Origin: Bacteroidota bacterium
GTDB taxonomy: Bacteria; Bacteroidota; Bacteroidia; Bacteroidales; CAIXZF01
Direction: 5' to 3'
NCBI GenBank assembly: GCA_022709385.1
Contig: JAKLIX010000002.1
Span: forward strand, 44,535-108,534
DNA length: 64,000 bases
Shown here: one piece after another, positions 6,401 through 54,531 of the stretch
Layout: every line of letters starts with the position of its first letter
Position numbering within the stretch: the first letter of the stretch is position 1
Notes under the pieces: generated by a model
Seen by the model: the letters and a program-made list of their open reading frames with translations, nothing else
Told to the model about the DNA's origin: nothing
The model's database searches: none
Translations under genes and position numbers: made by a program

Positions 6401-9400
6401 ACCCTATCGGAAAATATCACGGGTGGGACGATCAGAACCGCGGGTAATCTGCATTCGTTCCGCAACGACTGGCATCCGGACGGCGGTACCTTCATGATGT
6501 ACGGACCAAACCAGGCATCTTTCAACCACGTATCAGGCAGTGGATTCAATCACCTGGTAATCAATAAAGAAACGACATATCCCCTCGCACCCGATGCCAT
6601 CAATCCGTTCATGAACCTGGAGAAGGAAGAGAACCCTCCATCAGGCATGAAGTCTGGCCCTGCCGACGGACCCCTTGTGAACAATGTGATTGCTTCCGGG
6701 TCCATCGATCTCAATGGTGATTTCATCCTCAGCTCAGGTGTTTTTGAAGCACCCGACACCATGTTCGTGGCAGGCAACTGGGCTAATTATGCCGGTTTGG
6801 CTGCTTTCAACGAGAACACCTGCGTGGTGGAATTCGATGGTGCACAGGGATCAGACATCCTGACACAGGAGCATTTTTACGAAATGGTCCTCAACAAAAC
6901 CTTTACGGGCTTTGAAGGATTGGAGGTCAGTGACTCTGTCAGCATTACCCGTGACCTCAAAATCACCGACGGAACCCTCGAATTAAACAGCGGTGCAATA
7001 TTACATATCGGAGAAGACCTAAATATTGATACGGATGCCGGATTGAATGCCAATGACGCAGGACCTATCCGCATTTATTGCGGACAGCTATGGTCAGACT
7101 ATAACTCGTCTTTCGATAATTACAAAGGATTCAGCTGCGGGGTTGCAAGCAGCGTGGTTTTTAATTCATCACCCACTACAACCATTCAAGTTATCAGATC
7201 TCTTAATCCCTTTAATGATATTGAGATTAACTCACAGGCACCCTGGGTGCGGTCCAATAACATAACAAAATTCATTGAATGCAACAATTTGAATATTGTG
7301 GCAGGAGTATTCAGGGTGTCAGGTGCCAAGGTTATTGTCAACAACAACCTGAATATCAGTGGCAAACTCAGTATGATCAATGCCGATGACAGCCTGCTGG
7401 TAGCCCAGGACGTGATCTGGCATCCCGGATCTACCGATGAGGTCGATGCCGGGAAGATTTTTGTGGGGGATGACTGGACATTTGAAAACGGCACCCTTGC
7501 CCAGCTTGACCCGGTGAACCAGGTAATCTTTAACTCCGGCCAGACGGCCATGATCCTGTGCAATGATGCCGATGCGGCATTCGGCAGCCTGGTGATCGAT
7601 AAAGCTGCAGGCCCGGCTAACAGCGTTTACATCCATGGCTCATCCTCCGACACACTCAGGGTAAGCGGAAACATGACGGTGCGTCCCTCAAATACGTTCC
7701 AGACACAGTCGAAAAAGATGATCGTTACCGCCCAGCTTGACGTCCAGAACGGCGGACTCTTTTATATGACTACCGGATACCTCAGAAACGACAATAATGC
7801 ATTCGCTTTGAACGGAACAATGGATGTAAACGATGGAACCGTGATGCTGAAAGGGCATTTCACCCTGCCTCCGACGGGTAAGCTGATTATCTCCGGTGGA
7901 AGTATGACCAGTGATCCTCCACCGGCCGAATTCGCGTTCAGACAGTACCAGGGTCGTCTGGAACTTTCATCCGGTCTGCTGGAAATCAGAAATGACCATG
8001 TTTTTATATCTGGCGGATTTGATGATCAGATCAGCGGCGGAACCTTCCGGATTTTAGGCGCTTTTCAGGCAAATGCAGCCGGAACCTTCCAGCCAGCCGG
8101 CGGGACTGTGTGGTTTGGTCAGGATTATCTTACCGCCTATAAAACCTTCTATTGTTCCAATGGCAATTACTTCCATCACCTGACCATTGACGGTGATATG
8201 CAACTCGAAACCAATCTGCAGGTAAATGGAAATATTAATTTGATTTCCAATAACCTAAGAGTACTTGACAAAACTATTTCGCTCCGGGGAGACTGGATTA
8301 ATGCTGTGGGTACCGGAGGCTTCTCTGCCATGACCGGTAAAGTCGTATTTAATTCAGATTCCGATCACCAGGATTGCATCGGAAATACCAATTTCAACAT
8401 ACTGGAAATTGATAAAGGTTTTGGTGACCTGATAATTCCCACCGGTTCCACTGCTCATTGTGCCGAATATGACTGGACAGACGGGGAACTGGAAGTCAAC
8501 GGAGGCACCTTCATTGCCGATGACCTGACTGACAATGGATTATATGGAAATTATTATGTGACATTGGTGGGAGGTCTGCTCGAGGTACATCAGGATGCAG
8601 GACAGTACACAGACCTGAACGGCAGGGTCGTTCTAGCCGGAGGTGAAATGCACGTTTACGGCGGCAACGGAGACAGTTACTGGCCGTATGCGGCTGATGC
8701 AGATATATGGATGTATGGCGGAATTCTGGATTTCAAAGACAACGGGGTCTATCTGAATGCTTCCGCCTATACACTCAATGAAATAATAAACGGTGGTTTA
8801 ATCCGTATGAACGGCGGTTTTACTGGTTTACGGACAGATTTTAATCCTGCCGGCGGTAGCATTGAGCTTTACGGAAGCAGCACCGGAGACCTTGGTCATG
8901 CTGCCGGAAGCAGCTTGCACAATGTAATCATTAATAAAACCACAGCAGTTCACGTGGAAATTCCTTCCGACGGACTGCAGATCAACGGAGATTTGGATAT
9001 CCTCGAAGGTGCCATGACACTAAACAATGACCTGGTTAATGTAGGAGGGGATGTCCGGATTACAGACGGAGGATACCTGCAAATGATCAATCAGGCTGAA
9101 CTCGTGATGACGGATGCAGATTCTGTCAGTATCCACAATGGTGGCGAAATGTTCATTGACGGTGATCCCGGTTTGGAGACCAGCATCCATACAAACAATC
9201 CCCTTTCGTATTTTTCTTTCGATGTCTTCCCGGGCGGGGCTATCGCCGCAGAGCATAACTATTTCAGCAACCTTGCCCCAGCCGGGCTGAATCTGCATCC
9301 GGGCAGCAGTGTAAATCCTGCACATTCATTCCATTTTTGCCGCTTTTCCGATGGAGCCCCCGGCGGCACGCTGCTGACCATCAATAACGACCAGACATTT

Positions 9401-12400
9401 TTCGCCGATTATGCTTATTTCCCGGCTAACACATGGGGTGGAGCGAGCAATGTCACCAAGGGCGTGGATGCAGGGAGTGTAACATTTACCAACTACAGCG
9501 GGGGGTTCGGCGGTGAAGCCTTTGATAATGATCCCTTCAACCATATTTTCTGGGTCGAACCCCTCAGCGTTACGGCAAGCGCACTGCCGGAAGAGATCTG
9601 CGAAGGGGCTTCAACCCAGCTCAATGCCGTGCCTGCGAGCGGAACTCCGCCATACTTTTTCAACTGGGCTCCTGCTGCGGATTTGTCCGATCCGGCCATT
9701 GCAAATCCGGTAGCCACTCCGGCCAATACGACCACCTATTCCGTAACTGTCACCGACAACGTAGGTGCGACCGCTACCGCATCCGTGACCGTGACCGTGA
9801 ATAGTCTGCCGGTGGTGGTCTGCCCGCCCGGCTTCGATATATGCCTCGACTTTGGCGTATTGTATATGGAAAATATTAATGTCATTCCGGTGTCCAACAG
9901 CAGCAGCAGTGTATTCACCGGTCCCGGCGTCACTCCATCCAATCCGGCCAATGGCTGGTACGATTTCGATCCCGTTGCTGCAGGCCCGGGAACTCACACC
10001 ATCACCTACACTTACACGGATGCAAACGGCTGCAGCAACTCCTGCACTTTCGATATTACGGTTCTCGACCTGCCCGTGGTATCCTGTCCGGCGGATACCG
10101 GTATATGTATCAACTCCGGATTCATCTACCTCGAAACCCTCGATGTCTGGCCACTTTCGGTTGATGAAAACAGTGTCTTCAGCGGTATTGGCGTCACGGC
10201 ATTTGAGCCTGCCATGGGACAGTATGATTTCAATCCGCTCACTGCAGGACCCGGTACGCACCAGATCACTTACACTTACACCGATGCCAACGGCTGCAGC
10301 AATTTCTGCACCTTCTTCATTACGGTGTATCCACTTCCAAGCGTGAGCTGCCCGCCCGACATCAGCATGTGCCTGGATGCCCCGGCCCTGCTGCTCAGCG
10401 GTGGCACACCCGTGGGAGGAACCTACAGCGGTCCGGGCGTCATCGGCAATGTTTTTGATCCCGCACTCGCAGGACTTGGCACGCACCTGATCTCTTATGT
10501 CCTTACTGACGGAAACGGATGCACCGAAGGCTGTACCTTCTCCATCACTGTGCTGCCGCCTCCGGTGGTAAGCTGCCCGCCGGACTTCAGCATCTGCCTC
10601 GACAATGGGGTCGTCTTCCTTGAAAACCTTGGTGTATCGCCGGTTTCCAACAGCATCAGCAGTGTTTTCACAGGTACCGGCGTCACTCCCTCCAACCCGG
10701 CCAACGGCTGGTACGACTTCGATCCTTTGACAGCAGGTCCGGGAACCCACACCATTACCTATACATATACTGATGCATTGGGCTGCAGCAACTCCTGCAC
10801 TTTCAATATCACCGTTCTCGACCTGCCCGTGGTTTCCTGTCCGGCGGATACCGGCATATGTATCAATACCGGTTACATCTACCTCGAAAACCTCGGTATC
10901 TGGCCGCCTTCGGTTGATGAAAACAGTGTATTTACCGGTATTGGCGTTACTCCCTTCATCCCCGAGCAGGGAATGTATGATTTCGATCCGCTTTCCGCTG
11001 GTCCGGGTACGCACCAGATCACTTATACTTACACCGATGCCAACGGTTGCAGCAATTTCTGCACCTTCTTCATTACGGTGTATCCACTTCCCACGGTAAG
11101 CTGCCCGCCCGATATCAGCATGTGTCTCAATGCAACTGCCCTGCTGTTAACAGGTGGCTTTCCTGCAGGAGGCACTTACAGCGGTCCAGGCGTCATCGGC
11201 AATGTTTTTGATCCCGCACTCGCAGGAGTTGGCACGCACCTGATCTCTTATGTCTTTGCTGACGGAAACGGATGCACCGAAGGCTGTACCTTCTCCATCA
11301 CTGTGCTGCCCATCCCGGAAGTCAGTTGTCCGCCGGATTTTAATTACTGCATCAATGATGGAGTATTATTTCTTGAGTTACTTGATGTTTCACCTCCATG
11401 CATTGACATCATGAGTCTTTTCTCCGGAAATGGAGTATTTCCGGCCGACCCGTACAATGGCTGGTATAACTTCGATCCGCTTATTGCCGGCACCGGAACG
11501 CATTTGATCACATACACCTACTACGATCTTAACGGATGCCAAAACTACTGTACTTTCAGTATCACGGTTCTTCCGGTACCCGTGGTCAGCTGTCCTCCGG
11601 ATATGATCGTTGCTTTGAGTGAACCGCCATTTTCCCTCAGCGGGGGAAATCCCGCCGGAGGATATTACAGCGGAACCGGGATAGGGTTAAATACTTTTTA
11701 CCCTGCGACAGCAGGCGTAGGGAACCATCTCATTCTATATATCTATGAGGATGAAAATGGATGTTCCGATACCTGTACTTTTACTATCACCGTCAACGAA
11801 CCGCCAAGTGTCACTTGTCCTCCCAACCTCTTTGTCTGCCTTAGCGAACCTGCCTTTGTTCTCACGGGCGGAACACCGGCAGGCGGGTCGTACAGCGGAA
11901 CAGGCGTCATCGGCGACAGTTTTGATCCTGTGGCAGCCGGGGCAGGAATACATCAGATCACCTATACCTACACCGACGGTTTCGGATTCAGCAACTCCTG
12001 CAATTTCGATATTACTGTGTATCCATTACCCACAGTCACTTGTCCGCCCGACATCAGCATGTGCATCGATGCCCCTGCCCTTCTCCTTACGGGTGGCTTA
12101 CCCGAAGGCGGCAGCTACAGCGGGACAGGCGTTATCAACAACAATTTCGATCCTGCCATTGCCGGAGCGGGCGTTCACAACATCATATACAACTTCATCG
12201 ATATCAACGGATGTATGGATGGCTGTGAATTCACCATTACCGTCCTCGACCTTCCTGTCGTTAGCTGTCCCGGCGATACCGCTGTCTGTATCAACTCAGG
12301 TGTCTTCTACCTCGAAAACCTTGATGTATGGCCTCCTTCCGTTGATGCAGGAAGCGTATTCACCGGTAATGGCGTAATTCCCTTTATCCCTGCCCAGGGA

Positions 12401-14371
12401 TTGTATGATTTTAATCCCGTTGCCGCAGGTACCGGAACCCACCTGATCACCTATACCTATACCGATGTCAACGGCTGCAGCAACTTCTGCACCTTCAATG
12501 TGACGGTGTATCCGCTGCCCTCAGTCAGTTGTCCTCCCGACATCACCATATGCATCGATGCCCCTGCCCTGCCGCTCACGGGTGGTTTACCCGAAGGCGG
12601 CAATTACAGCGGAACAGGAGTGGCCGGTAACATCTTCGACCCGGCTGTAGCCGGTGCGGGCATCTATCTTATCACATACAATTATATTGATATCAACGGA
12701 TGTGAGAACAGTTGCGAGTTCACCATTACGGTCTCCCAGCCTGAGGTTATTTGTCCGCCAGGCATTCTGATCTGTATCAATGCCCCGGCCCTGCTGCTTA
12801 GCGGAGGCATTCCCGAGGGAGGCACCTTCAGTGGTCCGGGTGTTACCGGCAACATGTTCGATCCTGCAGCCGCTGGTGCCGGTTCTCATGAACTGACCTA
12901 TACCATCACCGATACCTGGGGTTGTACTGCATCCTGTACCTTCATTGTCACTGTGAATCCTCTACCTACAGCCGACGCAGGAGCCGATGCCGTCATCATT
13001 CAGGGTAACTCCACCACCCTGAACGGATCGGGCAGCGGCGGGAACCCGCCTTACGCCTATGCCTGGAGCCCGGCCGCAAGCCTTAGTGACCCGCTGATTG
13101 CCAATCCTTTGGCTACTCCGGCCGTTACCACCGTGTACACCCTGACCGTCGTTGATACTTATGGCTGCTATGACGCTGATGAAGTTACGGTTACCGTAAT
13201 CCCGGCCGGATCCGGCATTGTAAACGGTACGATCAGTTATGATAATGCCGGTTATACCAGTTTGTCAGCTGTCAGCGTGAGCCTGATGCAATCCGGTATC
13301 CCCGTCTATAACACTGTCAGCGGCAGCGGCGGCTATTATGAGTTTACGGGTGTGGCTCCCGGTTCCTATGACGTCCACTGTGCTTCCACCACACCCTGGG
13401 GAGGTGTGAATGCATCGGATGCCCTGGTGGTGCTGAAGCATTTCACCGGGATGACCACCCTGACCGGACTGCCCCTGCTCGCTGCCAACGTGGATTTGAT
13501 CCCTGCCATCAACTCCATCGATGCCCTGATGATCGCCAGGCGTTTCACCGGACTGATCCTCTCCTTCCCGGTGGGCGACTGGGTTTTCGAACCAACCGTC
13601 ATCACTGTCGTGGATGGGACAACAACCACCCAAAACCTGCTCGGAATGTGCTACGGCGATGCCAACCGCACCTACCTCCCACCCTACAAATCACCCGCCC
13701 GGGTGCTGCTGGCTGCTGAAGGAGAACTGCCTGTATTCACAGGTAGTATTACTGACATCCCGATCACCACTCCGGAACGACTCGAAGCAGGCGCCCTCTC
13801 CCTGGTGGTGGATTACCCTGAAGACCAGGTTCTGATAAGCGCCGTGACTGAAGGGAAATATTCCGGAAACCTGGTTTACCATATGAAAGATGGCTTGCTG
13901 CGCATCGCCTGGTACAGCGAAAGAAACTGCATCTTTGAGCCGGGAGAAAGCCTGATCGTTTTGAAGGCAATGGTATATGGCAATCCTGATGCAGTAACTT
14001 TCAATGCGTTACAGGAAAGTGAGGTGGGTGATCATGAAGGTCAGTTCCTCGCCAACTGCCGGCTGACCTATCCCAAACTCAGCAAAGCCGGAAACGGTAG
14101 CGTCGGAAATCTTTCAGTGATGCCGAATCCTTTCAGCAATACTACAGAACTGAATCTTTATTCTGCCGGGCCCGGCTCTGTCCTGTGGAAGCTTTTCAAC
14201 AGTACCGGCCAGCAGATCAGGGAATGGAAACAGCAACTGCCCTGCGCCGGTTTGCACAGCATGATACTGGAAGGAGAAGACCTGGCTGAAGGATGCTATA
14301 CCATTATCGCTGAAGTGACCGAAGGACAAATAAAACGAAACGAAAAAGCCAGGTTGGTTGTGATACGGTAA
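3413..14371 (+). CDS. Giant (~3,652 aa) T9SS-secreted surface protein: M43/ulilysin-type metalloprotease head, beta-solenoid-like region, PKD-like units, 13 tandem 4-Cys Ig-like domains, dockerin-like module, cohesin-like module, T9SS CTD
   Basis: The ATG at 3413 gives signal peptide MKKITRFTMILLTWLGLSGLDAGLHAQ; the ORF-track start at 3365 lies upstream of it. Zinc site HELGHCFTLLHIWGD...CGDTP (~4124-4210). A long Gly/Asn-rich region has an old internal duplication (~5975-6560 vs ~8340-8940; e.g. YDWVAGGVTVQSGSFTANDLYDNG vs YDWTDGELEVNGGTFIADDLTDNG). PKD-like units carry GTPPYFFNWAP and GGNPPYAYAWSP. Dockerin-like module at 13214-13690, cohesin-like module at 13700-14090. CTD MPNPFSNTTELNLYS...GCYTIIAEV...ARLVVIR. 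Confidence 0.9.
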   Translation: MKKITRFTMILLTWLGLSGLDAGLHAQSPVYNPLDEGIRCGTMAHYAAQVAADPSIEQRRIEFEQKLAQWIADHPNGCPDVSVTIPVVVHILYNTEAQNRSDAVVQEQIDIMNTDYGGQNTHPMWEFSNSLKVNTDIQFCLAKQRPDGTPTNGIERRQTSETGFISNDNMKHYSSGGLDAWDVTQYMNIWVCNLTDYLGYAQFPWSGINSTFGLVVRTTAFGVTGAIAPYNLGGTATHELGHCFTLLHIWGDEPLCTGSDQCGDTPNQANKTFGHHTGLLTDICSTTSPGIMYMNFMDYSDDQDYANFTPNQKTRIQSCFNSGGYLYSLLSSTKCTPVTTSMSSDVPYTAGTDPDWFLFNNNVNYWCAVGIRPNTAGEDWDIHLYSDDGFNPPTIASSTNGSSIPVDFVVMDNNHAPKQSRGIKADRWSGSGPATIEFEGSAETLAFGTNSNISWPAGDVIEMWDIYLSPGTYDFMLTFNSGTANLGIALFGSNGAAYYSGRNGAMAIADANGNGIGEHFTATITTTDYYGLCVFANNGNAANININIGVLGQWLGTVSNNWNTAANWGAGVVPDETIDVNIQAGTPYAPVIHDGVSAMCKNLTIGNLATLTQNPTSYLYVYGNFNSDEGTFTQSGSSYLYFAGNTDSYWDDDNMDDTYNYVRVDKLDPAAKLQMWQDMTVNTNFAVREGVFWIDSQWTLTVTGTGTSAFEVESGGKLQLTDENLDIAGGIWFWDGSQADVSGGNIYCGTNFRVNNNTAYNIQFTGGTLVMDGSGTQYIDDLDGSTKLYNLSIQKSSGTCYLKSNDLAVSNNLTINSGVLSCTNGPSPTITYSIHMGGNWINNVGPAGFDESTSVVYFDGNHMNDQTCSTETFHYLVVNKQEFSTFKVNGGNVTCASYDWVAGGVTVQSGSFTANDLYDNGIFGVFWLYNGGQIDLTNNDGYVDLNSFLYIFGGVFNVHGGTTMSYWPYASNAAIYMSDGILDFKDQGIRIHQTSYTLSENITGGTIRTAGNLHSFRNDWHPDGGTFMMYGPNQASFNHVSGSGFNHLVINKETTYPLAPDAINPFMNLEKEENPPSGMKSGPADGPLVNNVIASGSIDLNGDFILSSGVFEAPDTMFVAGNWANYAGLAAFNENTCVVEFDGAQGSDILTQEHFYEMVLNKTFTGFEGLEVSDSVSITRDLKITDGTLELNSGAILHIGEDLNIDTDAGLNANDAGPIRIYCGQLWSDYNSSFDNYKGFSCGVASSVVFNSSPTTTIQVIRSLNPFNDIEINSQAPWVRSNNITKFIECNNLNIVAGVFRVSGAKVIVNNNLNISGKLSMINADDSLLVAQDVIWHPGSTDEVDAGKIFVGDDWTFENGTLAQLDPVNQVIFNSGQTAMILCNDADAAFGSLVIDKAAGPANSVYIHGSSSDTLRVSGNMTVRPSNTFQTQSKKMIVTAQLDVQNGGLFYMTTGYLRNDNNAFALNGTMDVNDGTVMLKGHFTLPPTGKLIISGGSMTSDPPPAEFAFRQYQGRLELSSGLLEIRNDHVFISGGFDDQISGGTFRILGAFQANAAGTFQPAGGTVWFGQDYLTAYKTFYCSNGNYFHHLTIDGDMQLETNLQVNGNINLISNNLRVLDKTISLRGDWINAVGTGGFSAMTGKVVFNSDSDHQDCIGNTNFNILEIDKGFGDLIIPTGSTAHCAEYDWTDGELEVNGGTFIADDLTDNGLYGNYYVTLVGGLLEVHQDAGQYTDLNGRVVLAGGEMHVYGGNGDSYWPYAADADIWMYGGILDFKDNGVYLNASAYTLNEIINGGLIRMNGGFTGLRTDFNPAGGSIELYGSSTGDLGHAAGSSLHNVIINKTTAVHVEIPSDGLQINGDLDILEGAMTLNNDLVNVGGDVRITDGGYLQMINQAELVMTDADSVSIHNGGEMFIDGDPGLETSIHTNNPLSYFSFDVFPGGAIAAEHNYFSNLAPAGLNLHPGSSVNPAHSFHFCRFSDGAPGGTLLTINNDQTFFADYAYFPANTWGGASNVTKGVDAGSVTFTNYSGGFGGEAFDNDPFNHIFWVEPLSVTASALPEEICEGASTQLNAVPASGTPPYFFNWAPAADLSDPAIANPVATPANTTTYSVTVTDNVGATATASVTVTVNSLPVVVCPPGFDICLDFGVLYMENINVIPVSNSSSSVFTGPGVTPSNPANGWYDFDPVAAGPGTHTITYTYTDANGCSNSCTFDITVLDLPVVSCPADTGICINSGFIYLETLDVWPLSVDENSVFSGIGVTAFEPAMGQYDFNPLTAGPGTHQITYTYTDANGCSNFCTFFITVYPLPSVSCPPDISMCLDAPALLLSGGTPVGGTYSGPGVIGNVFDPALAGLGTHLISYVLTDGNGCTEGCTFSITVLPPPVVSCPPDFSICLDNGVVFLENLGVSPVSNSISSVFTGTGVTPSNPANGWYDFDPLTAGPGTHTITYTYTDALGCSNSCTFNITVLDLPVVSCPADTGICINTGYIYLENLGIWPPSVDENSVFTGIGVTPFIPEQGMYDFDPLSAGPGTHQITYTYTDANGCSNFCTFFITVYPLPTVSCPPDISMCLNATALLLTGGFPAGGTYSGPGVIGNVFDPALAGVGTHLISYVFADGNGCTEGCTFSITVLPIPEVSCPPDFNYCINDGVLFLELLDVSPPCIDIMSLFSGNGVFPADPYNGWYNFDPLIAGTGTHLITYTYYDLNGCQNYCTFSITVLPVPVVSCPPDMIVALSEPPFSLSGGNPAGGYYSGTGIGLNTFYPATAGVGNHLILYIYEDENGCSDTCTFTITVNEPPSVTCPPNLFVCLSEPAFVLTGGTPAGGSYSGTGVIGDSFDPVAAGAGIHQITYTYTDGFGFSNSCNFDITVYPLPTVTCPPDISMCIDAPALLLTGGLPEGGSYSGTGVINNNFDPAIAGAGVHNIIYNFIDINGCMDGCEFTITVLDLPVVSCPGDTAVCINSGVFYLENLDVWPPSVDAGSVFTGNGVIPFIPAQGLYDFNPVAAGTGTHLITYTYTDVNGCSNFCTFNVTVYPLPSVSCPPDITICIDAPALPLTGGLPEGGNYSGTGVAGNIFDPAVAGAGIYLITYNYIDINGCENSCEFTITVSQPEVICPPGILICINAPALLLSGGIPEGGTFSGPGVTGNMFDPAAAGAGSHELTYTITDTWGCTASCTFIVTVNPLPTADAGADAVIIQGNSTTLNGSGSGGNPPYAYAWSPAASLSDPLIANPLATPAVTTVYTLTVVDTYGCYDADEVTVTVIPAGSGIVNGTISYDNAGYTSLSAVSVSLMQSGIPVYNTVSGSGGYYEFTGVAPGSYDVHCASTTPWGGVNASDALVVLKHFTGMTTLTGLPLLAANVDLIPAINSIDALMIARRFTGLILSFPVGDWVFEPTVITVVDGTTTTQNLLGMCYGDANRTYLPPYKSPARVLLAAEGELPVFTGSITDIPITTPERLEAGALSLVVDYPEDQVLISAVTEGKYSGNLVYHMKDGLLRIAWYSERNCIFEPGESLIVLKAMVYGNPDAVTFNALQESEVGDHEGQFLANCRLTYPKLSKAGNGSVGNLSVMPNPFSNTTELNLYSAGPGSVLWKLFNSTGQQIREWKQQLPCAGLHSMILEGEDLAEGCYTIIAEVTEGQIKRNEKARLVVIR
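9810..12960 (+). repeat. In-frame array of 13 ~75-90-aa 4-Cys Ig-like domains; the first six form two copies of a 753-bp (3-domain) higher-order repeat
   Basis: Unit starts: VVVCPPGFDICLD, VVSCPADTGICIN, SVSCPPDISMCLD, VVSCPPDFSICLD, VVSCPADTGICIN, TVSCPPDISMCLN, EVSCPPDFNYCIN, VVSCPPDMIVALS, SVTCPPNLFVCLS, TVTCPPDISMCID, VVSCPGDTAVCIN, SVSCPPDITICID, EVICPPGILICIN. TGCCCGTGGT occurs at 10071 and 10824 (offset 753). Near-identical DNA at ~10254-10340 vs ~11008-11095. Confidence 0.9.
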
Positions 14372-14603
14372 GGTATCGGCTAACTAATAAAAAGCTGACT
14401 TAGAATTAGTCTGCATTCATATCACCTGATACTCTGAGACGTAATGGATTTTTATCATTTGACCTCCCCTTACGTCCCAGGGTGTAGGGTGTAATCAAGG
14501 TACACTGGAAATCAAGCTTGTAATCGGTGTCATTCCGTGTATTCCCGTTTAGAGGTATCCTCTCCGGAAAAGAAAACAAGTGAGCATGTTACAGAAAATT
14601 TCG

Positions 14604-15650
14604 TCAGGGAGAGAAGGAAGCATTGACATCACCGGTACAGACCACGGTAACTGGAATGTTGTATTGGTCGCAGGGAGTCACAATCAAGTTCTGCTCCATG
14701 ATTATCCAGTCACCTGCCGGAAAACTGCTGATCGCCCCGACAAAGCGCTGCACAATCATCAGTGCATCAACTGAATTGATACTTCCGCTGTTGTTCACAT
14801 CCGCAGCAGTCATCCTGATTCCCGTCAGGGTACCCATTCCGGTGAAATGCTTCAGCACGATCAGGGCATCCGTGGCATTCCCTCCTCCCCATGGCAGACC
14901 GGCAGTACCGGTAATGGTATAATTTCCGGCCGGAACATGGCTGAAATGAAATAAACCGGATGAATCCGTAATTGCTGAATCCACTGCCATGGCATTTTGT
15001 GATAATAGCATCTGTACGCCACTGACCGGAGTCTGAAGGACATTGTCATATTGCAGTATCCCTTCAATGGTTCCCTGGCCTTCCTCAACATAGCCATCCA
15101 TAAACCTGGCCGGCTTGATGTCCAGCAGATGAGAATACTGACATGCGCCGTTCACCCAGGTTTCCCAGATCAGCTTCGTGGTATCGCAATTCGAAAGGAA
15201 TTTGATCACTAATAAAGTATCATCATCAGATACACCGAAAAAACCATTAATAGTATAACCCGCAAACCTGAATAAACCGTATCCGGGATACCCGGTACTG
15301 GATGGCAAAAAAGACCAGATAGGGATACTGATTGATGGATGTACGTAGTGTAATCCATAAAAGGTCAAAGCAGAAAATTTGAACAACACAGACAGTGAAA
15401 TCGATGAGATACTGTCAAAATTTCTTACCCTTACCGGTACATATACAAATGAACCCGGAGGATTACAGTTACAATAGGAACTTGTATCAATCCAGGTTAT
15501 CACAGTGTCATCAGTGGTGTACTGTTGGTCAAGGGTGGAGGCAAACCGGCCTTCAGACCAGGAAGCGTAACACATGCCGGTCGTAAGGAAGAACAACAGC
15601 ACAGTTAACAAGATGAGTGGTTGATGACCTCTGATACATATCTTACGCAT
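14604..15650 (-). CDS. Secreted 348-aa protein: cohesin-like module + CarboxypepD_reg-like + dockerin-like module, with no T9SS CTD (possible adaptor)
   Basis: N-terminal hydrophobic signal (LILLTVLLFFLTTGMCYASW). Cohesin-like stretch GSFVYVPVRVRNFDSISSISLSVLFKFSALTFYG. The shared module runs GTIEGILQYDN...GNYTITGTAGLPWGGGNATDALIVLKHFTGMGTLTGIRMTAADVNNSGSINSVDALMIVQRFVGAISSFPAGDWIIME...CTGDVNASFSP and is followed by the stop. Confidence 0.8.
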   Translation of the reverse strand: MRKICIRGHQPLILLTVLLFFLTTGMCYASWSEGRFASTLDQQYTTDDTVITWIDTSSYCNCNPPGSFVYVPVRVRNFDSISSISLSVLFKFSALTFYGLHYVHPSISIPIWSFLPSSTGYPGYGLFRFAGYTINGFFGVSDDDTLLVIKFLSNCDTTKLIWETWVNGACQYSHLLDIKPARFMDGYVEEGQGTIEGILQYDNVLQTPVSGVQMLLSQNAMAVDSAITDSSGLFHFSHVPAGNYTITGTAGLPWGGGNATDALIVLKHFTGMGTLTGIRMTAADVNNSGSINSVDALMIVQRFVGAISSFPAGDWIIMEQNLIVTPCDQYNIPVTVVCTGDVNASFSP

Positions 15651-15876
15651 ACCTGTGTTTTTTAGATATAATAGCTCAAAGATATGATAAGATTAGCAGA
15701 ACTCTGTGAGTCTTCCACACTGACCCCCGGACTTCATTTTTTCAGGCTCCGGAATACAACCGGCTTTGGCGTTTGCGGCAAGTTTCTGAGTGAAAAAGTT
15801 GTCAACCAATTGACTCCGCTATGTGCACAAGGAGTCAAATATTAGTTAATATATTCTATATCAGAGTTTTCCGGCT

Positions 15877-18800
15877 TTATCTCTCATGTGAAAGCACAGT
15901 CATTTTCTGCTGAAGGATCAAACCGCCAGAGCTGAGTCGGATGAAATAGGTTCCTGCCTGTATGTGGCTATTGTCTAATGAAATACTGTGTACTCCGGCT
16001 GCATTTTCTTCATTCACAAGCTCTTTGACCAGTTGTCCGTATACATTAAACAATCGTAGGCTGACATTTCCCGAATTCTGAAGAAAATACCGGATCACAG
16101 AAACGGCATTTACCGGATTCGGAAAAACCTCAAGCCTGTTTTCCGGCTGAACATTGCTTAAGCTTGGCAGGATGAGTCCCCCGCGAATGATCCGGGCGTT
16201 TTCATCACTCACATTGCTTTCAGGATCAATGGTTAAGTCACAATCTGTAACACTTTCCTTCATTCGGGCATGTATTGTCAATACCAAATCCATCGGCTGA
16301 AGTTGAAAGGGTTCAAGATTATACCAACCAATCCGGGTTTCTCCGTTCCTGCTGTGATAAGCGAACTCTCCGGGGAGCCCGCTGATGATTTGCACGATAT
16401 CAATGACTTCCGGAACATTCAGAATGAGCGACATGGAGGAAATCATCATGTCAGATGCAGCAAATACCGGTATTATCATAGATCCGTCCGGCTGCAGGAT
16501 GCCGGTACCTAAATAGCTTACATACAGGGAAGCTTGGGATTTAAAACCCGGAAGATAGCTTTGGTTTATATCCCCGAAACAGATTCCATGATAATCAAGC
16601 ATCATATTATTTACACCATCGATGGTGAATTCCGGGATTTCGAAATACCAGTCTCCCGACGGAAATGTATCAATCAGACTGACGAACCTTTTCAATATGC
16701 TCAATCCGTCAATGGCGTTGATATTGCCTTCTCCGGTCACATCCGCGGCGACCAGGGGTAAACCAAGCAAGGTGATAAAACCGGTAAAATGCTGCAGCGA
16801 AAGCAGTGCATCAACGGCATTGGCCCCGCCCCACGGGATATTCGTCTGTGTCAGAAGATAATAATCACCTGCTTCAACTCCGTTAAAAACGAAGGATCCA
16901 TCTGTTCCGGTGCTGGTGGTTCCTATCAGTTCATCCAGGTTGTTGTAAAGAGATACTTCAGTATTTCCAAGCGGCGTATTGGAAAGATTGCTGTAAGCCA
17001 ATTGGCCATAAATACCGGACTGTCCTCCTGTTTGTTCGGTGATGGTTAGCTGGTCAGCATGCTGACAGCCGGCTTCATCTGTAACCGTCAATGTATATGT
17101 GAAAGGAAGGAAAGGTGGCGTTGCGAAGGGATTGGCAATGAATGGGTCATCCAGACCATCCGGAGGTGACCAGGAATACTGCAATACGCCCTGTCCGCCG
17201 GTAACGGTTGGTTGAAGCTGAACCGACATCCCTGGCAGGATTTCCTGGTCTTCACCGGCATCTACCAATGGGGCCATCAATACTGTTATAAAATCCGCCT
17301 GATTCGCATCACATCCGTTTTCATCCGTAAAGTGATAGGTAATGGCTACCTCTCCGGGATCGACAAGCCCCGGATTAAACAGGTCGCCACTGACACCTTC
17401 CCCTTCAAATGTTCCTCCGGAGGGGGTTGCACTCAATGCCACTGCAGGACTGTTATCACATACCACATCCGGACTGATGCTGAAAGTGATCACTGGCAGG
17501 GGATGCACCGTAACTTCAGCAAAACCGCTTGTCTGCTGCAATCCGTCATTCACGGTAACCGTATAAACTGTATTCACGTCCGGTATAAGCTGTGGATGCT
17601 GTTCTGATGAAGTGAAACCCGGAGGATCCGATTCCCAGGAAAAGGAATAATTTCCGCTACCCCCCGTTGGAAAAGCATGCAGGATCACCGCTTCGCCTTC
17701 ACAAACCTCAGAAGGCTCGGCAGTGGTGGTGAGTATCAAAGGCGGAGGAAGGCATACCGCCGATCCATCAGTATAAACTCCCGTAACCAGAGCAGTGGAC
17801 GCGTGCATGAACAATGCAGGGCCCTGATTTTGCGTCCAGCTGATCTCTGAAGAGGGCCCGTCCATGAAATGAAAGTGCAGCGTAAAAAACATGCCTTCAC
17901 TCAGATTGACAGTATCCCCATAGTAGTGAAAAGACAGGACACCATCTGTCGGATTATCCGTGATGCTGAGCGAGTCCGGATTCACGCCACCTCCCCAGTC
18001 ATCACAGGTATCGTACTGAAGAATAGCCGGATCATATTCAATATAAAACTGAAATAAAACCATATCCGTGATACCTGAAGCATAAACCGGGACGGCAAGC
18101 ATACTGCCATCGCAATATCCGCCGGTATCAGCAATGGTCAGTGCAGGCGGCTCCATCGGCTCCACCGTAATGGCTAATCCCGGAGACCAAACCCCGGCAG
18201 AACACTGGCCAATCCCCCTCACTTTTAAAACCCCGGAGGTGGCCCCGGGGAGGAAGTCCAAGGTAACATTCTGCCCGGTGTCATTGATACTGACATTGCT
18301 GCCACTGTAAATCCATTCATAGGAGATTGCACCTTCGATTTCTGGCACACCATATGAAACACTATATACCGGAGGAATAATGAAATCAATCCCCACCGGA
18401 GTAAGAGGTGCTTCCGGACTATCAGGATCCGTTCCCGTGATGATCATTGAAACAGCCTCGGTCACATTCACAAGATCAATGGAATCAGGATCATACTCAT
18501 AACACAGGTGGGTAAAAGTGACCGTTCCGCTGCAACCGCATGGAACCTCCGATGCCCAGATACCAAGTCCATCGGTAGTGCCACTCACACCACAGTCCCC
18601 TGAGATTTCAATCTGCGTTCCAACAATTGGAAACTCACTGATTTGAAGGGTTTTAAAAGATACAGGCACCATCTGTAATGTGGCAGTGAAATCCAGGCTG
18701 TCAAGGTTGGTCGTGACGTTGCTCAGACTTCGTAAGCCTGGGAAGTAGGAATAGCATTCATCAAGCGGTTTGACTTTACCTGAGAACCCACACGGGAGTG

Positions 18801-21800
18801 TGACGATATACTCACCCAGGCTGTTTGTGATTGCAGTTTGACCGCTTGTTCCAAATGTAATGGTAATGCCGGCTACCGGCTGGTCGCTGCTGTCCCTGAG
18901 TGTGCCACTGAGACTGACAGTCTCTTGTATGGCTGTGAAATTCAAATTATTAAGCGGATTGTTAACATTGATCAGATATCTTACCTCAGGAACAAAGGTA
19001 AAGCAACTCTTTTCGGGGCTTACAGAACCTGAATAACCACAAGGCACACTGAAGGAGAAATACCCTGATAAACTCGTCATTGCAGTTCCACCCCCGTCCC
19101 CGCTGATAATCATCGTAACACCTGAGATACCATTATTCAGACTGTCCCTTACGAAACCTGAAATGGGTACAAGGATGCCGCTTGCTGTATAATCATGGTT
19201 ATCAATGCTTTGAGTGATATTGGTATAATTCATACCCGGTGGATCAAAGACAAAACAGGTTTTTGATACACTCACTGTACCGGAGTATGGACAAGGGACT
19301 GTCTTACTGTAAAAACCATTGTTGTCGGTAAAAACGGTTCCTCCTCCTGTACCGCTGAAAGTCAGGCTGACACCGCTCAGCGGATTCCCTTCATCGTCAA
19401 GGATCACACCTGAAATGACGGGATTGAATGGCTGGGCTGAATAATCCTGATTGCTTTGATGCGAAGTGACTTCAGTATACAAACGGTTCTCGGGGCTGAA
19501 AACGAGGCAAGCTTTGGCCGGGGTTGCAGTTCCTGAGTAATTGTAAGGGACACTTTTGCTGTAATAGCCGCTGGCATTGGTGGTGACGCTCCCACCCCCG
19601 CTACCGCCGAAAGTAACAGTGGCATCGCTGACCGGATCGCCGGTATTGTCAGTAACAAGGCCGGTGATATTGAATGTCTTGTATGTGCCAGCATAGTTTT
19701 TACCACTTATATTTGCATTTACATCTGTGTAATTCCAGAGTATGGGAGTAAAGGAATAACCCAGCTTAAATGCAGTGGCATAACCTGAATAACCACAAGG
19801 AACTGAAAAACTGTAATTCCCGCTTGAATTAGTCGTGGCCACACCCCCACCATTGCCCCAGAAGGTAATCGTTGCACCACTTATTGGCTGGAGCGTGGCA
19901 GCATTAAACACGGTACCGGATATCACATACTGCAGGATTATTCCTGCATAGTCCTGACTGTCTGCATGCGTGGTCAGGTTATTATACATCCTGCCTGCAG
20001 GAATGAACTCATAACAGGGATATTGCAGGGATGCCGATCCGCTGTATCCGCATGGAACAGTAATGGAATAATACCCTGAAGCATTGGTAATGACACTTCC
20101 TCCTCCGCTTCCGCTGAACAAGATGTTTACACCGCTTAGCGCTTCTCCGGTGCTGTTTGTTACAGTACCCGAAATAAGCGGGGACAAATCAGAAATAGTG
20201 TAATTCTGGTTGCTCTGATTGACAGTCACTTCTGAATAGGTAACCAAAGCCGGTGAAAAGCTGTGGCATTCCTTTTCAGGGGTTGCTGTCCCGGAATAAT
20301 TAAACGGTACACTCTTACTGTAATAACCATTCGCATTGGTGGTAACAGTTCCCCCTCCGGCTCCGCTGAAAACCACATCCACACTGCCGGCGGGATTACC
20401 GCCCGCATCAGAGATTATGCCCGAGATATTTCTGTTGGCAACACTGCCTCCGTAATTCTTCCCACTGATATCAGCCTGCACATCCTGATAACTCCAGAGC
20501 GCCGGCGTAAAACTGTATCCAAGTTTAAAAGCTGTTGCATGTCCGCTGTACCCGCAGGGAACTTCAAAACTGTAATTGCCGGATGTATTGGTGACAGCTA
20601 CCCCGCCTCCGCTGCCCCAGAAGGTAACGCTTGCTCCGCTGATGGGTGCGAGGGTTGTTGTGTTAAACACAGAACCGGAGATCGTATAGTACTGTATATG
20701 AGCTGTATAGTCTTGATCGGGCATACTGCCTGTGATTCCGGAATACTGAATACCGGGAGGGCTAAAGTCGTAACAGGAATGTTCCGGTACGGCAGTTCCG
20801 GAGTAGCCGCAGGGCACTGTGATGCTGTAGTGTCCACTGCCGTCTGTCATCACAGTTCCCCCTCCCGGTGAGCTGAAGGTGATGCTTACATTGCTCATGG
20901 GGTTTCCACTGCTGTCCAGAATGCTACCACTGATATCTTTGGTGGTATGACTGGCCCAGAAGTTCAATTCGTCCTGGTTGGTTGTGAGATTTGAAAAATT
21001 GTATACCAGGGGTGTAAATGATTTACATAGCATGGATGGGGTTACCGTTCCTGTATACCCGCAAGGGACGGTCTTGCTGTAAAAACCGCCGGCATCGGTG
21101 GTCACATCTCCGCCACCCTGTCCTGAAAAATGAACCGTAACGCCCGCTAACGGATTGACGTTAAAATCAATGATATAGCCGGAGACGGTTCTTGTCTGGG
21201 TATAAACGCTGTAGTTCTGATTATTTATATTGTTACCGACATTCTGGTACGCCCTCGAAGGAGGAACAACACTGTAACAGGGATGGGCAGGGCTCGCCGT
21301 TCCACTGTATGCACAGGGAACCTGGAAGCTGTAATAGCCGTTTTCATCGGTCGTTACCGTACCTCCCCCAGGCCCGCTGAATACGATACTGATCCCGCTG
21401 ACCGGATCACCTGTTGCGGTAGTTAATGTTCCGTTGATAAAGGGTGAATAGCTGGTTGCGACATAATCCTGTTCGGTCGATTGTGCAACCAGATGTGCAT
21501 ATGCTGAAGCGGACGGAGAGAAGGTATGGCATGCTTTGGATGGGATTGCTGTACCCGTGTACCCGCACCCTAGCATGATCGCATACTCGCCATCGGCATC
21601 GGTGGTGACCGTGCCACCACCAGGTCCCGGGAACACAACATCAACACCTTCAACAGCTTCGCCGGCATTATTCGTGATCGTTCCGTGAACCACGGGACTG
21701 AATAGAACATCAGCAACCATATCCTGACCGGACAGGCTTTGTTGAAGATTATTATAGGATAATGATTCCGGAAGGAAATGATAACAGGAGGTGATCGCTT

Positions 21801-23880: not shown

Positions 23881-24280
23881 GATTTACTGTATTGTATTTT
23901 ACGAATGCCTGTTTCAGATTTCAATGTATATTGAATCTTAGTGAAATCAAATGCCATGAGAATGAAGTAACTGGCAGTGGTGGATTGCAGGAATTACCCC
24001 CCGGGAATGCAACAGACAAGCGTGTTATGTTGGCATCAGTTTTCACATATGTTAGTTCAAATATAATACATAACTGAACCGAATCAAATTTTTTTCCTCA
24101 AATGCAATATCATTAAATAAATGATGAAATCCACAGACCCGACTCCCGGGTTGCATTTTTCAGCCTTCACAACAGCAACGGCCGGATGGGCAGGGGCAGG
24201 GCCCTGAGTCAATAAAATGTGGTGGAATACTATGCTGACACGAAATGAGTTTTCGAGAAAATTGTTATCCAGTGGTGTAC

Positions 24281-24345
24281 GGCATTACTCATACTAATCA
24301 GCTTTGCATTCGCAAACCTGTCAAGTATGAGTATATCGTGATTGG
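24281..24345 (+). repeat. Copy 1 of a ~55-nt hairpin repeat family (core CAGCTTTGCATTCGCAAACCTG inside an ACTCATACT/AGTATGAGT stem)
   Basis: GGCATTACTCATACTAATCAGCTTTGCATTCGCAAACCTGTCAAGTATGAGTA. The outer 9-bp stem is perfect. The inner stem is CAG-C-TTTGC/GCAAA-C-CTG. It lies directly 3' of the minus-strand gene 24348-25397. About 90% identical to the copy at 43696. Confidence 0.75.
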
Positions 24346-24347
24346 AA

Positions 24348-25397
24348 TTACTGCCCCATAAATTCCCAGGCGGCAGCAGACAGATCCCTGATCAGTCCGG
24401 CCTGCAGCCGGCTGTCGGATCCTTCTGTCATCACCGTTAACAGATAGGGTTTTTCCGGATGATAGAAAATCCCGGTCTCGGAAAACTGCAACTGAACATT
24501 GTCTCCCGCTTCCCCGAATTTATGGGCCACCCTGGTTCCTGCAGGGACTCCCCCGCTCATGCCTTCGCTGAAAGTGGCCCTGGTCAACAGCTCCAGTGCG
24601 TCATGGGAGTTTTTCTCATTCAGAAAACTTGCATTGTACAATACCCTGAGAAAGCGGGAAATATGAGCGGCAGTCAGTCTGAAATCGGGGTCAAAGGGGG
24701 CGGGTACGGGTAAGCCGAGTTCTGAATAGACCTTCCGGTACCGGTCTGAATCAAACATATTCATCAGTAACAGGGTCGTGGCAATGTTGTCGGAATGAAC
24801 GATCATGTTCTCGATCAATTCCCTGATCGTGTATGTGTTCCCCAGTTTAAGCGGACTTTCGCGATAGGTTTCCGATTTTGGATTGGCAATGGGACGGTCG
24901 AAGGTGACTTTCCTGTTAAGCACACCGGGTTTCTCCTCTTCCATTTTCATAAAAGCCATCATCACCGGAACCTTCAGGATGCTGCCGGGAATATAACCCG
25001 CGTCGCCGTTAATGGAAAACCACCTGCCATCCGACAGGGACCTGAAATATAAAGAGACCTTACTGATCCCTCCCTGTTCCCTGTGCTGATTAACAACAAT
25101 ATCAAGATGATCTCTCAGGGCCAGCAATCCGGGTGACTCCCGGAAAGGATCAGTCAGCCTGAGGGGATGAGACAGGCCTGGACTGTTGCCCCTGATCAGT
25201 ACCAGGCTTTCTTCTGTCTCATGAAACTTAGTGTTTATAATATCACCTTCCTTGTGGCTCGAAAAAGAAGCCAGTCCCAACCAGATGACAGCAGTGAACA
25301 GGACCTGGGATAATCCGGCATATATCCATGGTATTTTGATTCTCAATAAATTAAATGTACGAATGGGAACAGGTTCCGCTATGTTCTCTTTTTTCAT
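24348..25397 (-). CDS. Membrane-anchored serine hydrolase, class A beta-lactamase-like fold
   Basis: N-terminal TM helix (WIYAGLSQVLFTAVIWLGLASF). SxxK motif (PGSILKVPV), SDN motif (IVHSDNIATTLL), KxG-like motif (AHKFGEAG). Confidence 0.7.
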   Translation of the reverse strand: MKKENIAEPVPIRTFNLLRIKIPWIYAGLSQVLFTAVIWLGLASFSSHKEGDIINTKFHETEESLVLIRGNSPGLSHPLRLTDPFRESPGLLALRDHLDIVVNQHREQGGISKVSLYFRSLSDGRWFSINGDAGYIPGSILKVPVMMAFMKMEEEKPGVLNRKVTFDRPIANPKSETYRESPLKLGNTYTIRELIENMIVHSDNIATTLLLMNMFDSDRYRKVYSELGLPVPAPFDPDFRLTAAHISRFLRVLYNASFLNEKNSHDALELLTRATFSEGMSGGVPAGTRVAHKFGEAGDNVQLQFSETGIFYHPEKPYLLTVMTEGSDSRLQAGLIRDLSAAAWEFMGQ

Positions 25398-25537: not shown

Positions 25538-26164
25538 ATTACCGCCTCCTACAGCAAAATCGTTCCTCCTCTAGTGATCACTCCTTTTGATGCCTCTATC
25601 ACGTCAAGGTATGCCCTTTCGCTGTACACCCTCACCAACGACCAGCAAAAAGCCGCCGATGTGGATACCAACAACAATGCCACGGTATATGATGCCGTCC
25701 TTTATGCCCAGTATTCCGTGGGCCTGATCAACTCCTTTACCGCCGGAATGTGGCTCATCAGCCCGCTTTCCAACACTTACAACCTGATCAGCAACCTGAT
25801 GGACCAGAATTATAAGCTTACCGCGGTGGGCGATCCTTCGGGTAACTGGACAGCACCGCCTTCAGGAGGGCCCAGGCTGGGCATCAGCTTTCCGGTAGAC
25901 ATTCAAAACCAGTCAATTATAAAAATTCCTGTCCACGCCAACGAACCCTTCTCTTCCTATCTGGTAGATAAGGTCAACATCAGCATTTACAACATGCTGG
26001 GATCGTTGGTGATGACCCTGGTGGATGAAATTCAGGAAAGCTGATCCCATTCAGTCCGGCTTCCAGCAGGAATTTTGCCCGCCGGATTGTATACTTACAG
26101 ACTCGTCCTCAGCAGTGCTTCTAACTTTGAACACAGTATTGGATGGTTGTTGAGTGATAATTGA
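25532..26164 (+). pseudogene. 5'-truncated remnant of a dockerin-like/T9SS-CTD protein gene with an in-frame TGA inside the CTD
   Basis: The frame opens at 25532 with no signal peptide or upstream domains. A diverged dockerin-like stretch is present (PFDASITSRYALSLYTLTNDQQKAADVDTNNNATVYDAVLYAQYSVGLINSFTAGMWLISP). The CTD sequence VNISIYNMLGSLVMTLVDEIQES is interrupted by TGA at 26042-26044. The same frame continues SHSVRLPAGILPAGLYTYRLVLSS... to the stop at 26162-26164. Confidence 0.7.
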
Positions 26165-26178: not shown

Positions 26179-26454
26179 CTATTCCTCTGCCGCAACAGAA
26201 GAATCAGGATATTGGGTTTTGCCTATTTTATAAAGGTACTCGGGTGCCAGGTCAGCTCCGTTAGGCCATTGAACGGTGTTGTACCGGATACTGAACTTTC
26301 TGAAAAAATCTAAGTCCTTCAATGGGTGGAATACAGGTCCGATCATTTTACCTTCAAGATCGACAATCTTGGATTTTCCGTCATTAAAAACCACAAGTAT
26401 TTTGTATTCAAATAAATACTGGGCATCTACGACTTCTAAAAATAACGTATTCAT
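26179..26454 (-). CDS. DUF2442-family small protein
   Basis: 91 aa. MNTLFLEVVDAQYLFEYKILVVFNDGKSKIVDL...FRKFSIRYNTVQWPNGADLAPEYLY matches the DUF2442 pattern recalled from memory. It overlaps the upstream gene by 4 nt. Confidence 0.7.
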   Translation of the reverse strand: MNTLFLEVVDAQYLFEYKILVVFNDGKSKIVDLEGKMIGPVFHPLKDLDFFRKFSIRYNTVQWPNGADLAPEYLYKIGKTQYPDSSVAAEE

Positions 26455-26714
26455 ACTAATGGATCTATGGAAACCAAAGGTATTCCCTCCTGGGCATTAT
26501 TCCAATTCATTAAAAGCTCGTCACTGTGTTCAGATAACCAGTCAAACACCATTAATAAAGCACGTCTGGGCATCATCCCTTTTACTATCCTATCATGAAT
26601 CGTTACCGAAATTTTATATACTCCATACCAGGCATGAAAATGAGGAGGTGCATGATCCATAAAGTTCATCAGGATAATGATTCCATAAAACTGGCTAATC
26701 TCTGGCATTTGCAT
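26451..26714 (-). CDS. DUF4160-family small protein (start probably the second ATG at 26708)
   Basis: MPEISQFYGIIILMNFMDHAPPHFHAWYG... is the DUF4160 signature (FYGI.I.M...DH.PPHFH). It is translationally coupled to the DUF2442 gene. Confidence 0.7.
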   Translation of the reverse strand: MQMPEISQFYGIIILMNFMDHAPPHFHAWYGVYKISVTIHDRIVKGMMPRRALLMVFDWLSEHSDELLMNWNNAQEGIPLVSIDPLV

Positions 26715-36143: not shown

Positions 36144-36180
36144 CCATTGAATCAGCTGTTTGAATATTAAAACGAGCAAC

Positions 36181-37347: not shown

Positions 37348-37377
37348 TTCCTGCAAACCACTAAACATCATTCAGTT

Positions 37378-39171: not shown

Positions 39172-39192
39172 TTACTCGTATGACGGAGAAGA

Positions 39193-39216
39193 GGACGGCC
39201 CCGGCTGTCCTTTTTT
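39193..39216 (+). terminator. Rho-independent terminator after hydA (operon 1)
   Basis: GGACGGCC..GGCTGTCC stem (one G-U pair) followed by TTTTTT at 39211-39216. Confidence 0.6.
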
Positions 39217-54520: not shown

Positions 54521-54531
54521 AAAGCGAAACC

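Follow-up and report, generated by a model that had tools for sequence, protein, structure and literature searches.

Cohesins and dockerins are known from systems other than the clostridial cellulosome. Archaeal proteins also join the two modules outside cellulosomes, and the cohesins of Clostridium perfringens assemble secreted non-cellulolytic enzymes via dockerin-like modules. Non-cellulosomal cohesins and dockerins are likewise established in Bacteroidetes, dockerins from Prevotella and Bacteroides having been reported in a rumen survey (PMC6487960). ANME archaea encode many cohesin/dockerin proteins whose role is unassigned, and archaeal cohesin-dockerin pairs are stated to have been verified to bind (PMC9012536, ANME comparative genomics). 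In 'Ca. Stygibacter' (Cloacimonadota), a large tandem-cohesin protein with a C-terminal domain (CTD) of the type IX secretion system (T9SS) type was proposed from genomes to recruit peptidases and glycosidases that bear dockerins (Williams et al. 2021, PMC8542988). Here we describe a locus of an uncultured, anaerobic Bacteroidales bacterium in which both modules are built into T9SS cargo proteins. The DNA analyzed, referred to below as the window, is a stretch of 64,000 nt (GenBank assembly GCA_022709385.1, contig JAKLIX010000002.1, positions 44,535 to 108,534), and all coordinates are positions within it. In each of two giant proteins encoded there, a transthyretin-like (TTR) domain, a dockerin, a cohesin and a T9SS CTD follow one another, and this arrangement is a conserved, widespread cassette that is not peculiar to the locus. 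We consider the chances evenly divided on whether it represents a non-cellulosomal cohesin-dockerin system built onto T9SS cargo and linking that cargo in trans.

The cassette occurs in an adjacent trio of genes spanning 3413-23880. The first gene (G1; 3413-14371, + strand) encodes a giant secreted protein of 3652 amino acids (aa), with a signal peptide, a Peptidase_M43 head and HYR/PKD-like repeats ahead of the TTR, dockerin, cohesin and CTD. The third (G2; 15877-23880, - strand) encodes a T9SS cargo protein of giant size (2667 aa); besides a signal peptide and the cassette, it has an HExxH region, 14 CarboxypepD_reg repeats, an internal cohesin and PKD domains. Between them lies the gene for a 348-aa protein (P348; 14604-15650, - strand), which has a signal peptide, one cohesin and a unit made of a TTR domain, a dockerin and a short tail, without a CTD; in possessing one cohesin and one dockerin, its architecture resembles that of an adaptor scaffoldin. 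A first-pass annotation of this DNA had pointed out the adjacency of the three genes, which the coordinates of the open reading frames (ORFs) bear out, as well as the order dockerin, cohesin, CTD in both giants, which also held, with the dockerins of G1 and G2 and the CTD of G1 scoring under curated cut-offs.

The same annotation had placed four cohesin-like stretches in the trio. All four of the peptides it quoted were found (13742-13846 in G1, 15354-15455 in P348, and 16393-16485 and 18013-18108 in G2), and our own domain envelopes closely match the ranges it gave. The internal canonical cohesin of G2 (17761-18141, - strand) matched the Pfam Cohesin profile directly (PF00963; profile length 139, gathering cut-off 24.1 bits), scoring 30.5 bits when the full-length protein was scanned and 35.6 bits for the module alone, over profile positions 3-136. 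A check against this profile, which the first-pass annotation had itself named as a test, thus upheld the call for one module and, at face value, went against the other three, which gave no match on their own. These three are the modules that adjoin the CTD in G1 (13679-14098, + strand; delimited by a hidden Markov model (HMM) envelope of their family) and in G2 (16138-16548, - strand; assigned by AlphaFold2 fold and family profile), which we term X, and the N-terminal cohesin of P348 (15075-15563, - strand; termed N type and assigned by profile comparison and through its homolog P0005).

Single-sequence searches of the PDB with the divergent stretches reached E-values of 0.3-1.9 only, the top match being a cohesin both times. 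Homology links the X module of G1 with that of G2 (135 aa aligned at 21% identity), and a profile of 23 X sequences, composed of these two and 21 modules from homologs retrieved with P348 as query, matched a non-cellulosomal cohesin of Archaeoglobus (2xdh; E = 4.7e-8) and the NagJ cohesin of C. perfringens (E = 2e-4) in the PDB; 13 of the 23 members individually match Pfam Cohesin. An AlphaFold2 model of G2 X, computed from the 23-sequence alignment, is a nine-strand beta-sandwich with a mean predicted local distance difference test score (pLDDT) of 92.3. When this model was compared with the PDB by Foldseek, the top 27 matches were all cohesin modules or cohesin-containing constructs, with template-modelling (TM) scores of 0.58-0.74, in agreement with the cohesin-like fold that the first-pass annotation had proposed.

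For the N-terminal domain of P348, the connection runs through P0005, an ortholog-like protein of the same architecture (34% identity, E = 6e-43; 27% identity and E = 7e-11 for the N-domains alone), which scores 40.8 bits over the full Pfam Cohesin profile. A profile of three such N-domains was too shallow (E = 0.56 against the PDB; 9.5% in hhalign) and was replaced by one of 19 P348-N-type sequences. With the latter, cohesins accounted for 10 of the 11 PDB matches listed, including all those below E = 0.5 (best E = 9e-4), and alignment with the X family by hhalign gave a probability of 97.8% (E = 7.6e-13). On this evidence, the four stretches all belong to the cohesin family and represent three subtypes; chance resemblance to cohesins is ruled out by the E-values together with the fold evidence.

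The closest solved relatives of X are non-cellulosomal cohesins. The best match in both sequence and structure is the Archaeoglobus fulgidus module 2xdh (TM 0.74 in Foldseek), to which identity is only ~15% and which comes from an archaeal host without T9SS, TTR fusion or CTD. Second come the C. perfringens NagJ/GH84C cohesins (2jh2, 2w1n), which differ from the proteins described here in being part of soluble enzymes secreted by Firmicutes, in pairing with another dockerin type and in having neither CTD nor cassette. The clostridial type I pair of the C. thermocellum Xyn10B dockerin with the CipA cohesin (1ohz) shares the same domain families, the X model reaching TM scores of 0.6-0.7 to type I cohesins.

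Going beyond the first-pass annotation, we found that every dockerin in the window belongs to a larger unit of ~170 aa, led in the alignment by a TTR domain (CarboxypepD_reg/SdrD_B-type) and closed by a conserved tail. Five such units occur. Three are in the trio: in G1 (13220-13684, + strand; dockerin core 13397-13582, tail GDANRTYLPP), in P348 (14607-15068, - strand; Pfam dockerin match 14745-14879) and in G2 (16543-17058, - strand). The others are at the C-terminus of an 870-aa protein (gene 29257-31869, + strand; unit 31351-31863) and at the N-terminus of a 799-aa FISUMP protein (gene 59939-62338, - strand; unit 61763-62275), which also has Fib_succ_major domains (205 bits); neither protein has a CTD. 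The five dockerin-plus-tail segments span 13397-13684, 14607-14890, 16543-16880, 31570-31863 and 61763-62050. Against Pfam Dockerin_1 (PF00404; cut-off 22.9 bits), P348, the 870-aa and the 799-aa protein passed with 36.9, 27.8 and 27.3 bits, confirming the earlier claim of dockerin proteins without a CTD, whereas the native modules of G1 (15.3-17.8 bits) and G2 (18.3-20.2 bits) lie under the cut-off. An HMM of the unit gave E = 8.8e-79 for G1 and 1.7e-77 for G2, values that are self-matches since the model was built from the five window units themselves. The profile of the dockerin module matched 24 chains in the PDB, every one a dockerin (best E = 1.2e-11), among them the 1ohz_B dockerin solved together with its cohesin (E = 1.4e-7). 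In the AlphaFold2 model, the G2 unit forms three helices with pLDDT values mostly of 93-96 (88 at residues 131-140, and 84 at the end, just past the tail motif).

Within the unit, the TTR domain is followed by WGGxNAxDAL and helix 1, a second calcium loop AADVNxSGxxNxxD and helix 3, then FPAGDW, a set of three short strands, and the tail C-x-G-D-V-N-x-S-(Y/F)-x-P, immediately after which both P348 (GDVNASFSP) and the 870-aa protein end. The two repeats of the dockerin are near-symmetric, a duplicated helix pair, as in clostridial cellulosomes. Four of the five units have a canonical second calcium loop, and that of G1 is degenerate (ANVDLIPAINSID); an ortholog with 77% identity has almost the same loop as G1, whose degenerate state is therefore conserved and not decaying. 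The first calcium loop is non-canonical in all units, with positions 1-5 missing at their usual place, and Pfam Dockerin_1 matches start at profile position 8-11. The start of the module after the TTR domain, W-G-G-x-N-A-T-D, fits loop positions 6-12, and its end, G-D-V-N-(G/A)-S-(Y/F)-x-P, fits positions 1-5. The G, D, N/D and S/T residues of this tail are 98-100% conserved across 159 units, above the conservation of the canonical second loop. Grafting the tail in silico ahead of the module head added 5.5-9.8 bits to the Dockerin_1 score of each of the five units (giving 26.2 bits for G1 and 30.0 bits for G2) and extended the match to profile position 1-2. The first calcium loop thus appears to be split between the two ends of the module, with the conserved tail as a candidate source of the missing positions, and the dockerin reads like a natural circular permutation.

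Both giants end in a type A T9SS CTD. That of G2 (15883-16137, - strand) matched Por_Secre_tail (PF18962; 36.3 bits) and TIGR04183 (44.3 bits; cut-off 23 bits), and that of G1 (14105-14371, + strand) is divergent, scoring 14.4 bits with TIGR04183, under the curated cut-off, yet 47.2 bits with a second CTD HMM that was built from cassette relatives passing Pfam Por_Secre_tail. P348, the 870-aa and the 799-aa protein gave no match to the type A or type B CTD models of NCBIfam, and their N-termini, judged by eye, resemble ordinary Sec-type signal peptides. Two more CTD genes lie at the edge of the window (57-797 and 806-2809, + strand), encoding a 246-aa LVIVD-repeat protein and a 667-aa FG-GAP/ASPIC protein, each with Por_Secre_tail and neither with a cohesin or dockerin; these additional CTD proteins indicate that the T9SS is in use. 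The gingipains of Porphyromonas gingivalis are similar to the giants in having a Por_Secre_tail CTD, a beta-sandwich directly upstream of it, and protease or adhesin heads. To our knowledge, gingipains contain no cohesin or dockerin modules, and their complexes use other adhesin domains.

Searched exhaustively with HMMER, the X profile matched 2872 cluster representatives at E<=1e-3 and 1681 at E<=1e-10 (clusters at 50% identity), extending the observation from this locus to a family that the first-pass annotation had not considered. We annotated the best 146 X-bearing representatives, which range from 223 to 6281 aa in length, with our own HMMs. The protein ended in a CTD in 138 of the 146, a TTR-dockerin unit stood immediately upstream of the last X in 123, and in 127 the end of X was 75-115 aa from the C-terminus. 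A genome scan with the cassette alignment detected 352 loci in Bacteroidales, Lentimicrobiaceae and other Bacteroidota metagenome-assembled genomes (MAGs); the best 80 of these all span nearly the whole cassette and all come from uncultured members of these groups. Many paralogs of the cassette occur per genome, and one genome alone can hold more than 10. Full-text searches of the literature, whose coverage is incomplete, found no description of a TTR-dockerin-cohesin-CTD cassette.

The relatives also include proteins in which the modules occur apart or in arrays. P0040 has six tandem X-type Pfam cohesins, He_PIG and a CTD, and no dockerin. In P0042, P0048, P0039 and P0044 (4300-5700 aa, up to 5695), 8-10 tandem P348-type cohesins precede a cassette at the end; such arrays are spaced at ~230 aa and some alternate with Ig_3 domains. 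P0130 and P0153 are likewise scaffoldin-like, and all of these relatives come from uncultured Bacteroidales. Dockerin-only proteins exist as well. Multi-cohesin scaffoldin-like proteins are thus a feature shared with clostridial cellulosomes. Unlike these, the present system has a Gram-negative Bacteroidales host, presumed anchoring through T9SS CTDs rather than surface-layer homology (SLH) domains or sortase, and no carbohydrate-active enzymes; its dockerin is fused to a TTR domain, with a first calcium loop that is apparently split or permuted, and cohesin and dockerin are adjacent in one chain. The proposed 'Ca. Stygibacter' scaffoldin shares the combination of cohesins with a T9SS-type CTD and the same genome-based line of inference. 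Unlike the present case, it belongs to another phylum and has its dockerins on separate enzymes, with no TTR-dockerin-cohesin-CTD or same-chain arrangement described.

The invariance of position and spacing across the family (an X end 75-115 aa from the C-terminus in 127/146 and a dockerin unit directly upstream in 123/146) is also what may be expected if TTR, dockerin and cohesin form a calcium-stiffened stalk, a structural pedestal that, once exported by the T9SS, spaces the functional head from the outer membrane and involves no recognition between proteins. T9SS CTDs are commonly preceded by beta-sandwich domains. An AlphaFold2 model of the G2 cassette (18-sequence alignment) had a pLDDT of 89.7 and a predicted TM score (pTM) of 0.72 over the four modules, which suggests some defined inter-domain geometry, with lower confidence in the short linkers that lead into X and into the CTD; Foldseek comparison of the whole model returned cohesin and CTD-like matches and nothing more, headed by 2w1n. 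The short linkers and this pTM fit a stalk, as do the non-canonical first calcium loop and the degenerate second loop of G1. A stalk leaves unexplained the lone TTR-dockerin units of the CTD-less proteins, the arrays of 6-10 tandem cohesins in relatives, the cohesins distant from a CTD (the internal module of G2 and the N-terminus of P348) and the retention of a near-symmetric dockerin repeat, and we regard it as a possible though doubtful explanation.

The dockerin may instead bind the X module that follows it in the same chain, a clasp by which the cassette would be locked, or the cohesin hidden as long as no competitor is present, with chaining between proteins secondary or absent. The strict adjacency of dockerin and X throughout the family and the defined geometry suggested by the pTM of 0.72 are consistent with such a clasp. 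In the cassette alignment, the dockerin subtype moreover tracks the X subtype, a correlation that shared descent explains equally well. On the other side, the linker of ~8 residues may not reach the canonical face of the cohesin, and cohesin arrays without dockerins and dockerin proteins without cohesins exist; we judge a predominantly intrachain interaction decidedly unlikely.

Several observations weigh against binding in trans. The ~8-residue linker between dockerin and cohesin and their strict adjacency equally fit a rigid stalk or an intrachain clasp, readings that the predicted geometry of the cassette also fits. Even at E<=10, the Pfam Cohesin profile found nothing for G1 X, G2 X or the N-terminal domain of P348; the native dockerins of both giants score under the Pfam cut-off; and, as described, no unit has a canonical first loop and the second is degenerate in G1. 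From the sequences, a route by which the CTD-less dockerin proteins would cross the outer membrane is not evident. That CTD cargo is anchored at the surface rather than released is assumed by analogy with Porphyromonas, and some T9SS cargo is released, not anchored. The cassette carriers, finally, are all uncultured.

We nevertheless favor linkage in trans, because cohesin arrays lacking dockerins and dockerin proteins lacking cohesins exist side by side in the family, because the near-symmetric dockerin repeats have been retained, and because a related genome has the G1-P348 gene pair without G2. The family context as a whole, with its conserved arrangement and its tandem-cohesin relatives, favors modules that would function in binding. 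In the proposed mechanism, export by the T9SS and removal of the CTD would leave the X cohesin closest to the outer membrane, and dockerins would bind cohesins in trans via calcium, as cohesins and dockerins do elsewhere. Cassette-bearing cargo would thereby be linked together on the surface; X would serve as the receptor near the membrane, and P348, with its one cohesin and one dockerin, as an adaptor. The most speculative step is that CTD-less proteins would be recruited onto the assembly. Self-assembly on the cell surface is thus plausible for a cassette that recurs across far more than 1000 uncharacterized protein families, and the interpretation offered by the first-pass annotation, correct in its module calls and their order, is partly supported in its proposal of an assembly.

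A bolder version of linkage in trans, which we put forward tentatively and hold to be rather unlikely as a whole, is that the cassette is a general device joining T9SS cargo of uncultured Bacteroidota, giant proteins of very different kinds, into chains or a lattice on the cell surface, the dockerin of one protein binding the membrane-proximal cohesin of another. CTD-less TTR-dockerin proteins would then join after export or leave the cell already bound to a CTD-bearing partner, and the dockerin would be a natural circular permutant whose first calcium site is formed from the two ends of the module, stapling the dockerin to the TTR domain.

The heads of the giants bear on what such an assembly might do. 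The Peptidase_M43 (metzincin) domain of G1 (3947-4366, + strand) scored 47.8 bits with PF05572 against a cut-off of 23 and contains the zinc motif HELGHCFTLLH, and is followed by an array (5000-13000) of ~11 HYR/PKD-like cysteine-rich repeats (CPPD...GG.YSG.GV...C.F.ITV). In G2, the head has a HEFGHxxxxxD motif, the Matrixin score of 16.6 bits is under the cut-off of 24, and a PDB search with the region gave only insignificant matches to ulilysin around the HExxH (E = 0.49); 14 CarboxypepD_reg-type repeats lie at 18200-22000. The metzincin heads that had been ascribed to both giants therefore hold for G1, and we make no such claim for G2, whose head has the motif and a Matrixin score below the cut-off. 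Among the proteins of the window that bear a cohesin or a dockerin, none showed a glycoside hydrolase (GH), polysaccharide lyase (PL), carbohydrate esterase (CE) or carbohydrate-binding module (CBM) domain. The heads (M43, HYR/PKD and TTR arrays, FISUMP and choice-of-anchor-J) point to adhesion or proteolysis over cellulose breakdown. This agrees with the proteolytic or adhesive role suggested earlier as far as the lack of carbohydrate-active domains goes; support from a protease comes from G1 only, that from G2 being weak.

A true cellulosome-like machine for polysaccharide degradation, with the giants as scaffoldins for carbohydrate-active enzymes, would share the cohesin-dockerin-scaffoldin logic seen here, and it could accommodate the Fib_succ_major domains of the 799-aa protein (FISUMP, a family named after a fiber degrader) as well as the homolog P0003, which joins a dockerin to a beta-helix domain. 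The cohesin- and dockerin-bearing proteins of the window have no glycoside hydrolase, CBM or polysaccharide lyase; their heads are a peptidase and adhesin-like repeats, and SprB and Ig repeats occur in the heads of the relatives that were sampled. On the absence of any carbohydrate-active domain from these proteins, we rejected the cellulosome, which we consider highly improbable here.

The locus recurs in other assemblies. The G1 gene is called as 3644 or 3652 aa in public assemblies, and G2 is identical to HRY32038.1, from a metagenome-assembled genome, annotated as 'T9SS type A sorting domain-containing protein [Bacteroidales bacterium]'. The exact P348 protein, with the same giants on both sides, was present on 13 public metagenome contigs. 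A comparison of window positions 10301-25397 with a related locus in a Bacteroidales MAG (L039; CAZSQJ010000018.1) identified an ortholog of G1 (77% identity) and one of P348 (P0002, 73% identity), so that the G1-P348 pair is conserved between the two genomes. G2 was missing at the syntenic site in this comparison and is therefore a lineage-specific gain or loss; directly after the P348 ortholog lies a 349-aa gene of the beta-lactamase family (83% identity). A scan for sigma-70 promoters and terminators in the intergenic region between G2 and P348 gave nothing informative, Bacteroidota promoters differing from the sigma-70 type.

Downstream of the trio, a 156-aa ORF (25574-26044, + strand) lacks a signal peptide; the unit HMM matched part of a dockerin in it (positions 82-164, E = 3.3e-9), and its end is partially CTD-like, with a weak match to the CTD HMM. 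It is probably the decayed remnant of another cassette-bearing gene, a sixth copy of the unit. Two overlapping small ORFs of 91 and 87 aa (26179-26714, - strand) may represent a DUF2442/DUF4160 pair, which they resemble. The window further encodes two pairs of FeFe-hydrogenase and NuoF-like proteins, HypF, an AIR-synthase-related protein (AIRS/AIRS_C), Hdr-like flavoproteins and a NiFe hydrogenase large subunit (36160-43048, 45710-50466 and 51570-59255). From the FeFe and NiFe hydrogenases, HypF and the Hdr-like proteins it follows that the organism is an anaerobe; these genes make up the hydrogen-metabolism cluster of a fermenting anaerobe and have no relation to the cohesins and dockerins.

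The T9SS places many proteins on the surface of Bacteroidota, and how this cargo is arranged is largely unknown outside Porphyromonas and Flavobacterium. If linkage in trans is correct, the cassette would provide a concrete route for the assembly of cargo with cargo, present in more than 1000 protein clusters and often in many copies per genome, in carriers that include abundant Bacteroidales of anaerobic digesters and sediments, such as Lentimicrobiaceae. A split calcium loop, if real, would constitute an unusual dockerin topology, useful for engineered cohesin-dockerin parts. Given linkage in trans, assembly by cohesins and dockerins would extend to Gram-negative surfaces and to non-cellulolytic functions.

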